From NCBI GenBank assembly GCA_963801295.1, contig CAWDEH010000007.1:699848-763847 (forward strand): a DNA stretch of 64,000 nt, read 5' to 3'. The position numbers and the translations under genes were made by a program. The DNA comes from an uncultured Chitinophagaceae bacterium (lineage in GTDB: Bacteria > Bacteroidota > Bacteroidia > Chitinophagales > Chitinophagaceae). Position 1 is the first letter of the stretch; every line of letters starts with the position of its first letter. Positions 50,781-56,550 of the stretch are shown in pieces. The notes beneath the pieces are model-generated. The model saw only the letters and a list, made by a program, of their open reading frames with translations. It did not search any database and was not told the origin of the DNA.

Positions 50781-52569
50781 TTACAATGGGTACTTGTTCA
50801 GGCCAATGAGCTGGCCGGCAATTTTTCTTTTTGCCTCCTTGGCATTGAACGGATTCACTTTGGTGAATCTTTTCAGTCCAAGCAATAACATCCGTTGTTC
50901 ATCGCCATCGGCAAAGGCGTTAATCGCATCTTTTCCTGATTTATTCAGCTGGTCAGCCGCATCATAAAGAAAGGTGCTCACCACGTCCGGCTCAAACGTC
51001 AAATTGCCATTTCCCTCTGTTAGCTTGATAAGCCTGATCAATGCACTTTCCGCATGAAAAGTAACCGTGGCCATATCGGCAATATGCATCAGGATCTCCT
51101 GCTCATTTTCGAGATCTGTATATCAGTTTTTGAACCGCTGCGCCGGCCGTCATCAGGATGGCTTTTTTAAATTGTGCAATGATTTTCTTTTCCGTGGCGA
51201 AAGGGGTGTCATCGGAAGAACCGAAATCCGGAATGCTCACCAGTTCTTTCGCAACCGCTTTGGCAGGCGTAAGAATATCGAGCCGTCCCTTCGCCGCTCT
51301 TTTTAAAACCATATCCACAATGAGCAGCCGGTTGATTTCATTGGTGCCTTCAAAAATCCGGTTGATGCGACTGTCGCGGTATGATCTGGAAACGCTGTAT
51401 TCATCACTGAAGCCATTTCCGCCATGTATCTGCACGGCTTCATCCACGACAAAATCCAGCATTTCACTTCCGAAAATTTTCAGCATGGCGCATTCGATGG
51501 CATATTCCTCTGCTGCACCCGAGGGCTGCTTCATTCACCGGCTTGCCTTCTTCCAGCAGTTCTTCTTTTTTTTGTTCGATCCAGGCGGCTGTGCGGTACA
51601 ATGCGCTTTCAGCAACCCAGATATAGATGGCCATTTCCGCGATCTTGTTTTTAATGGCGCCAAACTGGGAGATCATGGTTTTAAACTGTTCGCGGGTATT
51701 GGCATATTCGATAGCGGTGCCGGCCACACGCTTTCCGGCGCCAAGGGCTGCTGCGCACAATTTCAACCGGCCGATATTCAGGATATTAAAGGCGATGATA
51801 TGACCGCTGGCCAATTTCACCCAGCAGATTTTCCACAGGCACTTTACAATCCTGAAAATAGAGCTGAACGGTTGATGAGCCTTTGATACCCATTTTATGT
51901 TCTTCCGGCCCCCGGGTAAAACCTTCAAAATCCTTTTCCACGATAAACGCAGAAAATTTTTCGCCGTCTATTTTAGCAAACACGGTGTAAACATCTGCGA
52001 ATCCGCCATTGGTGATCCAGCATTTTTGTCCGTTCAGCAGATAATATTTTCCATCCTTACTTAATGTGGCCGAAGTTTTTGCGCTGAGGGCATCGCTCCC
52101 GCTGTTGGGTTCGGTTAGCCCGTAGGAAGCCTTTCCATTCCCCGCTGGCCAGTTTCGGAATGTATTTTTCTTTCTGCGCTTCCGTACCGAAATAGAGGAT
52201 GGGCAGGGTGCCGATGCCCGTATGGGCCGCCAGCGCAACCGAAAAAGAAAAGCCGCCACCGAGCGCTTCATTAACGATCGTGGAGGTAATGAAATCCTTT
52301 CCGAGTCCGCCAAGCTCTTCCGGAACGGAAGCGCCCAGCAAACCCTGTTCACCGGCTTTTACCAGCAGAGAGGGCATGAGACCGGGTTCCAGCTTATCGA
52401 TCCGCTCCATGATCGGCAGTACTTCTGCATCCAGGAAGGAAGCGCACATTTCTTTCACCATGCGCTGTTCCTCATTAAAATCTTCCGGGATAAAAGTAAG
52501 CGCTGCAGATTCACGGATCAGCCATTCACCGCCCCCGATTTGTTCCTGTTTGATGGTTGCTGTGCTCAT
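50781..52569 (-). CDS. Acyl-CoA dehydrogenase; several indels
   Basis: [34 protein letters not shown] and RIFEGTNEI motifs. Confidence 0.92.
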
Positions 52570-52610
52570 GATGTATTATTTATTTTTTAAGAATATCATT
52601 CACCCAATTC

Positions 52611-53053
52611 CTATTTAAGATTATCATATACAACCTGCAGTACCGATTTACAGATTTCTATTTGTTCTGCCGGAACGCTTTCCAGTGCTTCATTCAGGGT
52701 TTCTTCCGCCAGTTTGCATGGTCTGTTCCTGCAATTTCGCTGCCGTTTTGGTCAGGCAGATACGGTTTATTCTCCGGTCGTCGGAAGAAGCAACCCGTTT
52801 CACAAGCTGCAATTTTTCGAGATTGTCCACCAGCCGGGTGATGCTGGGTTTATCGCGGAACGTGGCACGACAAAGATCCTGCTGGCTCTGTCCGTCCTGC
52901 TTCCACAACTGATGATAATACGCTCCATTGTTCAATGGTAATATTCAGATTCGCCTGATTGAATTTCTTCTGAAGCCTGCGCGCAATGGCGATGGATGCC
53001 TTGCCGGTGACAAAACTATATAACTCTCCTTTCTTAAATTGGTTGTTTGGCAT
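52611..53053 (-). CDS. MarR family transcriptional regulator; frameshifted
   Basis: ITIEQW, DKPSITRLVDNLEK and DRR winged-helix motifs. Confidence 0.9.
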
Positions 53054-55695: not shown

Positions 55696-56178
55696 TTATG
55701 ACTTCTCAGGTATTTTATAAACCTGAACATTGCGGTTAAAACTCTCATCCAGGGAAATAAATGTTTCGGTTCTTTCAATCCCTTTTATTTTCTGCAATTC
55801 ATCGTGCAATACAAACCGGAGCTGTGCAATGTCCTTACAAACGATTTCGGCAAACATACTGTAATTGCCCGTGGTATAGTTCAATCGCACAATATCCGGG
55901 ATCCTGCGCAATTCTTTGGCTACAGAATCATAAAGAGAGCTTTTTTCCAGATAAATTCCGATAAAAGCAATCACATCATAACCTAAATGTTTTAGATTTA
56001 CATTCAGTCTGGTACCTTTAACGATACCGATTTCCTGCAGCTTTTTAATCCGCACATGAATCGTGCCCCCTGAAACAAACAGTTTTTTTCCCAGATCGGC
56101 ATAGGAGATTTCTGCATTTTCCATCATTTCATGGATAATTTGGAGATCCAGTTTATCCAGATTAAATTTCATAGCCAT
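55696..56178 (-). CDS. Lrp/AsnC family transcriptional regulator (AsnC-like)
   Basis: LDKLD, VSGGTIHVRIKKL, YTTGNYS and TETFISL motifs. Confidence 0.93.
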   Translation of the reverse strand: MAMKFNLDKLDLQIIHEMMENAEISYADLGKKLFVSGGTIHVRIKKLQEIGIVKGTRLNVNLKHLGYDVIAFIGIYLEKSSLYDSVAKELRRIPDIVRLNYTTGNYSMFAEIVCKDIAQLRFVLHDELQKIKGIERTETFISLDESFNRNVQVYKIPEKS

Positions 56179-56325
56179 TTGAAGATCGGTTTTTAATAAT
56201 ATTCAATAAATATACCTAATAATTGAATATATTCGAATATTTTAAAAAATTTATTAAATATAATTCAATAATTATGCAATTTACCTTAATATTGCAGGGT
56301 CAACGCGTTAAAGCAGCGACTTTAC

Positions 56326-56498
56326 TGTGGAGTGATGGAACTTTGGCAGACATGCCCTCTTGTCTCGGGGGTGGGGATCACAGGATAAACATAGCATAAT
56401 GCCGGTTTCGCCGCAAGGCGTGGCCGACTGGGGTTGACCACCACTAACATTGTGCTACGGCTAACTGCCCCGTGGAGGTTCGAATCCTCCCTCTACAG
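56326..56498 (+). ncRNA. tRNA-like RNA: Asp (GUC) anticodon, Leu-type D arm, ~100-nt structured variable-arm insertion
   Basis: Acceptor TGTGGAG/CTCTACA; D arm ATG-GAACTTTGGCAGA-CAT; anticodon arm CCCTC-TTGTCTC-GGGGG; T arm GGAGG-TTCGAAT-CCTCC. Confidence 0.8.
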
Positions 56499-56502
56499 CT
56501 TG

Positions 56503-56550
56503 AAAAGCCCTGGAATTTAGATTGGATCTGAGTTTCAGGGTTTTTTGTTT
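56503..56550 (+). terminator. Rho-independent terminator after the tRNA-like RNA
   Basis: aagccctggaatttagat-tgg-atctgagtttcagggttt hairpin followed by a T tract. Confidence 0.8.

Follow-up and report, generated by a model that had tools for sequence, protein, structure and literature searches.

The window, by which we mean the whole stretch of 64,000 nucleotides analysed here, encodes at 56326-56498 on the forward strand a cloverleaf with the identity marks of tRNA-Asp, a body of tRNA-Leu type and a very large variable region, and the question is what an RNA of this kind is for. A previous sequence-only reading of the locus had proposed a tRNA mimic recognised by AspRS, and had guessed that it serves as a sensor, a protein scaffold or a donor of Asp. 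The RNA is real, conserved and structured, and it is catalogued by neither Rfam nor ARAGORN. From comparative sequence analysis we propose, with a probability of about 0.6, that it is a dedicated non-decoding carrier for asparagine made by GatCAB, replacing asnA and asnB and likely under feedback from AsnC. Published work is cited below by PMC number, in each case for the part of its text available to us.

A tRNA-like gene facing an AsnC-like regulator gene

The features of the locus, with their basis in brackets, are as follows.

55696-56178, minus strand: Lrp/AsnC-family regulator gene, divergent from the RNA (best NCBIfam match AsnC PRK11179, E 6e-47, below the equivalog cut-off)
56179-56325, no strand: AT-rich divergent promoter region, with TAATATTG at 56287-56294, one mismatch to TAnnTTTG
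56326-56499, plus strand: tRNA-like RNA gene, U1 to G73 (56498) and templated C74 (56499) (130 bits to the family covariance model R1)
56326-56332, plus strand: acceptor stem, 5' strand, with U1:A72, G2:C71 and U3:A70 (family conservation, covariation)
56333-56353, plus strand: D arm of tRNA-Leu type with A14, A15, G18, G19, C20 and A20a (comparison with tRNA-Leu, family alignment)
56355-56371, plus strand: anticodon arm with loop UUGUCUC; GUC at 56362-56364, U37 at 56365, C38 at 56366 (sequence mapping)
56372-56473, plus strand: variable domain of 102 nt, base helix 56373-56376/56468-56471 (covariation, RNAalifold)
56384-56389, plus strand: conserved internal loop, 5' side GAUAAA, partner CUAA at 56461-56464 (family comparison)
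56392-56457, plus strand: long helix 56392-56401/56448-56457 at the base of a three-way junction, of which one arm is a variable hairpin at 56403-56426 (fold, covariation)
56429-56443, plus strand: optional conserved hairpin GGRUNGACCAC, in 178 of 255 members (family comparison)
56474-56490, plus strand: T arm, 5 bp, with UUCGAAU loop (family conservation, covariation)
56491-56498, plus strand: acceptor stem, 3' strand (56491-56497), and discriminator G73 (56498) (family conservation)
56501-56547, plus strand: intrinsic terminator-like hairpin and U tract (sequence; RNA-library contig cover ends upstream)

On re-mapping, the cloverleaf with its 7-bp acceptor, the UUGUCUC loop and the 102-nt variable region fell on the coordinates given in the sequence-only reading. 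The class II D arm of tRNA-Leu type (A15:U48, G18 G19) that it described matches tRNA-Leu(CAA) of the same genome, and the base helix of the variable arm is framed by U44 and G47-U48 as in that tRNA. Since both the D arm and this framing copy tRNA-Leu(CAA), the body of the RNA is likely Leu-derived. CCA is, as had been noted, not encoded; a templated C74 is followed by the terminator-like hairpin.

When the single sequence was folded, the variable-arm helices and the anticodon arm were recovered (z -2.2, with 7 of 200 shuffles folding equally well) and the D and T stems were absent. The fold proposed earlier for the variable arm stands with respect to its helices, and the internal loop RAUAAA/CUAA and the GGRUNGACCAC hairpin are conserved among relatives, whereas the CGCC-GCAA-GGCG hairpin is a variable appendage. 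We take the internal loop to resemble a UAA/GAN motif. The RNA scores as a tRNA neither in ARAGORN nor with Rfam RF00005. ARAGORN called no tRNA anywhere in the window; at lowered thresholds it reported the locus as an intron-containing tRNA-Gln, one among 177 noise calls, which was rejected. Rfam contained no family for the RNA, the sole match being a chance miRNA on the terminator, and at the Rfam gathering score no match was obtained for family members in six further loci.

A widespread and covarying RNA family

BLAST found the RNA in 25 of 41 relatives, including 19 of 24 within the genus, and a pattern for the anticodon arm matched in 29 of 301 genomes of the phylum. Extrapolated from 3 of its 64 parts, GTDB holds about 3,200 matching stretches; all 123 records retrieved are titled Bacteroidota, mostly Chitinophagales, Cytophagales and Saprospiraceae, and the named carriers include cultured Chitinophaga, Dyadobacter, Spirosoma, Algoriphagus and Hymenobacter. 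About 140-160 phage contigs in IMG/VR carry the family, while the 50,697 GenBank phages gave no match. Of 80 phage loci, 49 have ordinary tRNA genes no more than 1.5 kb from the RNA.

The first family set comprised 255 unique parsed members, with 30 further matches unparsed. G2:C71, G73 and C74 were present in 255 of 255 and U1:A72 in 252, none of these being part of the search pattern. Position -1, on the other hand, is C, U, A or G in 118, 105, 30 and 2 members, so that the 8-bp acceptor with a C-1:G73 pair considered earlier finds no support. Among 65 diverse members 93% of cells were paired, compared with 46-54% in slid controls, and 30 of 40 pairs changed on both sides; pairing of the acceptor and T stems was demanded by the parser and that of the anticodon stem by the pattern, so the support for these three stems is partly by construction. 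With 29 closer members RNAalifold predicted 39 pairs, 17 of them compensatory, and missed the D stem. The covariance model gave full members 101-136 bits, and its next-best matches were ordinary tRNAs of class II size (82-88 nt) at no more than 60 bits. The helices of the insert, for which the sequence-only reading had named a covariance model from homologues as the check, are borne out in this way, since the structure covaries with the variable arm included.

The variable region ranges from 25 to 147 nt across members, and a 76-nt member lacks the extra domain altogether, so this domain of about 100 nt does not form the functional core of the RNA. This member (L359:1500-1577; G193:C23:55337-55413, minus strand) scores 68 bits without the long arm; it has the Leu-type D arm, U1:A72, G73 and the loop CUAUCUC, and it lies away from asnC. 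Its host G193 contains asnA and gatB, and GlnRS was not found there. It is possibly a minimal or ancestral form.

Phage members often have another internal loop (RAAUAG/UGAAU), and some have an insertion in the D loop. In the phage loci L061-L180 a self-complementary stretch of 6-10 nt follows the hairpin motif in 58 of 65 members, compared with 26% in shuffles.

In the first set, all 178 members with the GGRUNGACCAC hairpin have G34, compared with 63 of the 77 without it, and in the loop-free set described below, which partly overlaps, the counts are 128 of 128 and 38 of 43. This association suggests that the GUC anticodon pairs in a pseudoknot with GAC in the hairpin; no compensatory change was found among the members, and the suggestion is given as a lead only.

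Identity marks for AspRS and GatCAB

To avoid circularity, metagenomes and phages were searched again with the seven anticodon-loop bases unconstrained. This loop-free search gave 176 unique sequences, besides 33 incomplete matches; of the 176, 171 were parsed with a paired acceptor and 5 were dropped. U35, C36, C38, G73 and G2:C71 were present in 171 of 171 and G34 in 166. Position 33 was U in 160, with C or G in the remainder, and position 37 was U, C, G or A in 154, 9, 6 and 2, respectively. Decoding needs U33 and a purine at position 37. The invariant or near-invariant loop positions are exactly those which, together with G73, determine recognition by AspRS (G34, U35, C36 and C38; PMC9976931) and the loose ones are those used for decoding, which makes a non-decoding mimic recognised by AspRS a well supported reading of the family. 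All the Asp identity elements listed by the sequence-only reading (G2:C71, G34-U35-C36, C38 and G73) are present and near-invariant.

The first acceptor pair differs from that of tRNA-Asp. In the loop-free set pair 1:72 was U:A in 166, A:U in 5 and G:C in none of the 171 members, whereas the true tRNA-Asp has G1:C72 in five of five genomes, with the loop CUGUCAC. Bacterial GatCAB recognises its substrate by U1-A72 alone, irrespective of the anticodon, and it amidates tRNA-Asp(U1-A72), with an efficiency reduced 120-fold when U20A is present and 2-fold when it is absent (PMC1635274). Judged by its marks, the RNA is a natural version of this engineered chimera. Its sequence has, by count, an extra D-loop base (G18 G19 C20 A20a G21), which counts against its being a GatCAB substrate; a class II D loop may present A20a differently to the enzyme. 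Furthermore, on E. coli AspRS the pair G1-C72 contributes to the placement of the acceptor end (PMC9976931), and U1:A72 may therefore lower the charging of the RNA. Also counting against a carrier are 14 of the 255 members of the first set, which have an anticodon other than G34.

The conservation of these marks upholds the earlier proposal of a mimic recognised by AspRS. It had overlooked three features that point to asparagine synthesis and away from its guesses of a generic sensor, a scaffold or an Asp donor: the U1:A72 pair and, as described below, an AsnC-like gene in divergent orientation and an association with gatB.

The AsnC-like neighbour and the promoter

The AsnC-like gene is the sole recurrent neighbour of the RNA, being present in 49 of 80 GTDB loci (the next cluster in 13). 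It stands head-to-head with the RNA in 81 of the 116 cellular loci having enough flank and in none of 49 phage loci; its absence within 1.5 kb upstream in the other 35 cellular loci counts against the carrier reading, as does the score of the regulator below the AsnC cut-off. In the twelve genomes of the same order without the RNA, a close homologue of the AsnC-like gene was not found in any. An exact TAnnTTTG, which we take to be the Bacteroidota -7 consensus, was found in the 80 nt preceding the RNA in 100 of 185 cellular members, compared with 5% in shuffles. The AsnC protein of E. coli is an activator of asnA, the gene divergent from its own, and is damped by asparagine (PMC8707732).

In the non-carriers G145 and G153 an AsnB-type gene stands opposite a weaker Lrp homologue, and in the non-carrier G094 a tRNA-Asn gene directly adjoins an Lrp/AsnC homologue (L495:1375-1449). 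A module of AsnC gene and RNA is also present in G162 (L347, G162:C26), which belongs to another class, through either transfer or a binning error.

Presence in RNA libraries

In five runs from five studies, RNA-library contigs pile up on 56340-56501 with next to none on the flanks; as contig depth pools relatives, and flanks that have diverged would fail to map, the piles establish that the RNA is present but give neither its level nor its strand. Excision of the insert to leave an ordinary tRNA, named in the sequence-only reading as contrary evidence, was not seen. A 126-nt contig from X2, identical to 56363-56488, spans the insert, and the length of the insert varies continuously across the family; an intron-containing tRNA was rejected on these grounds, a minor spliced form being possible. 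Cover ends at the discriminator in four of four runs, and three contigs from X8 read G73-C74-C and then adapter, which is a weak hint of CCA addition. Many contigs in four runs start, adapter-flanked, directly before RNA position 11-13 (56341-56343), hinting at a stop of reverse transcription or a cut near U8-G9.

Co-occurrence with gatB and exclusion of asparagine synthetases

The distribution of the RNA was compared with that of the relevant enzymes in a panel of 80 genomes picked for family spread, 51 in the class of the window and 29 in other classes. A full member was recorded as absent when not found by a covariance search that scored 40 candidates per genome; a 3'-end pattern showed no hidden member in G025, G029, G033, G040, G137 or G208. 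Among same-class genomes the RNA is present in 20 of 27 with gatB and 0 of 24 without it. The Fisher value for this tie, 1e-8, overstates it because the genomes are kin and not independent, and we give more weight to joint losses of RNA and gatB within families (G074, G121 and G292 in f1; G169 and G244 in f18; G056 and G264 in f20) and to the explained exceptions. Of the seven gatB-positive genomes that lack a full member, six, among them G193 with its short member, gave no GlnRS match above the cut-off, and a different task thus accounts for the GatCAB of these six; 11 of 12 tested genomes with both gatB and GlnRS carry the RNA. Two genomes count against the carrier reading: G208 (210 contigs) has gatB, GlnRS and AsnRS but the RNA was not found, and G039 has the RNA without GlnRS. 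In the other classes gatB is over the cut-off in 27 of 29 genomes and the RNA is present in G162 only. All 21 panel carriers have gatB, and gatC is present in the five carriers checked as well as in the window's own genome.

Neither asnA nor an asnB of E. coli type occurs in any of the 20 same-class carriers, compared with 17 of 31 non-carriers. AsnB was scored with NF006949 alongside TIGR01536, since the latter model takes in polysaccharide amidotransferases besides true AsnB. In 17 of 20 carriers AsnB-like amidotransferases score above the cut-off of TIGR01536, which counts against the carrier reading; of eight such genes checked, six lie in glycosyltransferase clusters and two stand alone, and with the latter synthesis of free Asn in carriers is possible. 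A published survey counts AsnB-like genes as asnB for Chitinophaga and Spirosoma, and lists Pedobacter heparinus with GatCAB, AsnRS and GlnRS and no Asn synthetase (PMC4206432).

The own genome (G000), which is 65% complete, contains gatB, gatC and aspS; gatA was not located, and no tRNA-Asp, tRNA-Asn or asnS was found in it, so the facts on these last three rest on relatives. Reading frames resembling acyl-CoA dehydrogenase, MarR and aspS are broken by apparent frameshifts (window 50781-52935; G000:C7:193762-195585), suggesting assembly errors. Seven same-class genomes at first seemed to have no AsnRS, which in the five checked (G033 and G040 not among them) proved to be a threshold artefact. 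In several same-order genomes (L446-L450) AsnRS has about 506-516 residues and an internal insertion that splits the HMM matches.

tRNA-Asn, GatB and AspRS in carriers

If the RNA carries asparagine for GatCAB, it matters whether tRNA-Asn could do the same. tRNA-Asn was read in 37 of 40 loci, 32 same-class and 5 other-class, and the D loop GGUUAG with the U20a antideterminant is present in 32 of 32 same-class genomes and absent from all five of the others. Most carriers' tRNA-Asn retains U1:A72, which counts against the carrier reading. In G106, G110, G181 and G034, all of which have gatB, GlnRS, AsnRS and the RNA, the tRNA-Asn genes found are G1:C72, including a second one in G034, and no U1:A72 RNA with Asp marks other than the present one was found. 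GatB of these four genomes keeps the turn that reads the first pair and the Lys-rich tail; this turn reads U1-A72 (PMC2811023). A G1:C72 tRNA-Asn, unusual for bacteria, was seen in f18, G034 and G193 (L473, L474, L475, L476, L477, L479, L484 and L792). A GatB signature of carriers consisted of three weak post-hoc columns and was dropped as evidence.

AspRS could not be typed as discriminating by alignment, no column separating the groups compared. A His signature marks non-discriminating AspRS; it is absent from carriers and from every same-class genome, and so was uninformative. Lone bacterial AspRSs can be non-discriminating and charge tRNA-Asn (PMC4206432).

A proposed route to asparagine and its alternatives

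U1:A72, the AspRS marks, the tie to gatB and the genomes in which tRNA-Asn is G1:C72 only are among the grounds on which we propose that the RNA is probably GatCAB's carrier for asparagine. Low asparagine would be sensed by AsnC and the RNA gene switched on; the transcript would be trimmed and receive CCA, ordinary AspRS would load it with Asp through the anticodon and G73, and GatCAB would amidate the product through U1:A72. The odd anticodon loop and the large arm would exclude the RNA from EF-Tu and the ribosome, and the arm would probably also aid docking or pairing of the RNA, and docking or dimer formation may be what the internal loop and the optional hairpin, both conserved, and the phage palindromes serve. 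Asparagine would then be freed by spontaneous deacylation or by AsnRS-mediated transfer, and AsnRS would charge tRNA-Asn. This release is the least supported step, and no release factor or dedicated partner gene was found, the AsnC-like gene being the only recurrent neighbour. Phages would carry the RNA to raise the supply of asparagine. We rate it slightly better than an even chance that in much of the Bacteroidota and in their phages a tRNA-like RNA serves in this manner as a dedicated cofactor for making asparagine, with a normal AspRS, a retained GatCAB and AsnC feedback.

The identity marks and the co-occurrence with gatB would also fit if the RNA were a regulatory decoy or scaffold that, charged or uncharged, binds AspRS and/or GatCAB so as to tune, store or assemble these enzymes, with asparagine made on tRNA-Asn or by an AsnB paralogue; such a role would also agree with a large and conserved extra domain and with the phage palindromes, which suggest dimers. 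It would, however, leave GatCAB with no canonical Asn substrate in the four carriers having GlnRS and only G1:C72 tRNA-Asn, and the 76-nt member and the variable regions of 25-45 nt do without most of the extra domain. We regard a decoy or scaffold as unlikely.

Dedicated non-translating tRNA donors exist, the staphylococcal tRNA-Gly being an example, and the non-decoding anatomy of the RNA would suit one that hands Asn or Asp to a lipid, the cell wall or a protein by way of a transferase. With the AsnC-like gene alone recurring beside it, and with the exclusion of asnA and asnB fitting supply of a free amino acid, we consider such a donor decidedly improbable.

Even less can be said for a ribosome-active tRNA that mistranslates GAC and GAU codons as Asn or Asp under AsnC: the cloverleaf is complete and GUC and U33 prevail (166 and 160 of 171), but 163 of 171 members have a pyrimidine at position 37, members with C33, G33 or without G34 persist, and the variable domain reaches 147 nt. 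A serine acceptor resembling allo-tRNA-Ser has in its favour G73, the long variable arm and the Leu body, as a change from A73 to G73 turns Leu into Ser identity in some contexts and Ser identity lies in the variable arm (PMC9976931); it is nevertheless hard to credit, since SerRS ignores the anticodon and yet U35, C36 and C38 are invariant, the G1:C72 of tRNA-Ser is missing, the frame is 7/5 and the tie to gatB would be unaccounted for. A decoy in defence or counter-defence (e.g. against anticodon nucleases), or else a tRNA in decay or the relic of a mobile element, is brought to mind by phage carriage and the adjacent tRNA genes, and has just as little to recommend it in view of the strong covariation, the stable chromosomal synteny and a loss that tracks gatB.

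Relation to known RNAs and pathways

The proposed carrier is closest to the indirect Asn pathway, in which a non-discriminating AspRS, tRNA-Asn and GatCAB cooperate (PMC1635274, PMC4206432). The predicted chemistry and U1-A72 are shared, as is the profile of AsnRS, GlnRS and GatCAB without a classical Asn synthetase. The indirect pathway relaxes the synthetase, whereas the RNA would solve specificity itself by placing an Asp anticodon on a U1:A72 acceptor; and the indirect pathway uses tRNA-Asn, whereas the carrier here would be a separate non-decoding gene, placed like asnA beside an AsnC-like regulator, so its product would have to be released. The E. coli asnC-asnA divergon (PMC8707732) likewise has a divergent Lrp/AsnC regulator facing a function in Asn synthesis, presumed in our case, but there the facing gene is the protein-coding asnA and here it is an RNA gene, for which AsnC control is proposed.

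With tRNA-Asp(GUC), which carriers retain in normal form, the RNA shares G34, U35, C36, C38, G73 and G2:C71, and it differs in U1:A72, U37, the Leu-type D arm and the variable region. Class II tRNA-Leu has the same D arm, A15:U48, G18 G19, A20a and U44-[helix]-G47-U48 framing, but A73 in place of G73, and neither the Asp anticodon nor the giant structured arm. tRNA-Ser has G73 and a long variable arm, but its G1:C72 is absent from the RNA. The allo-tRNAs and selC* tRNAs (PMC7609411, PMC5389517) share the long variable arm, G73 and, in some cases, a GUC anticodon; they have 8/4 or 9/3 frames, Ser, Ala or Cys acceptors and diverse anticodons and come from other phyla, whereas the RNA has a 7/5 frame and a fixed anticodon. 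The available part of the allo-tRNA review (PMC7609411) mentions neither Bacteroidetes, GatCAB nor asparagine. tmRNA has G3:U70 and a tag reading frame, whereas the RNA has U3:A70 and no tmRNA call by ARAGORN or Rfam.

The RNA departs in a defining feature from each of the known families considered and would constitute a new RNA class, one that would work like tRNA-Asn in the indirect pathway. No description of the family was found in the mainly open-access literature searched, and a supplement may list it. If the pathway is true, it would also be a new route and a third way to make asparagine, with a new job for a tRNA-shaped RNA; among routes of amino-acid biosynthesis it would be the first to use an RNA carrier that takes no part in translation, and phages would have in this RNA an auxiliary metabolic gene made of RNA. 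It would furthermore explain why GatCAB is kept in Bacteroidota having AsnRS and GlnRS, a puzzle left open in the available text of PMC4206432. Should the mechanism prove wrong, there is still a structured RNA family, unannotated and missed by standard tools, which occurs in genome records numbering thousands and in the tRNA arrays of phages.

Tandem copies of the RNA are common (L014, L023, L039, L052-L054, L056, L058, L338, L396, L596 and L609), and the copies often differ from each other, either in that only one has the GGRUNGACCAC hairpin or in the base at position 37.
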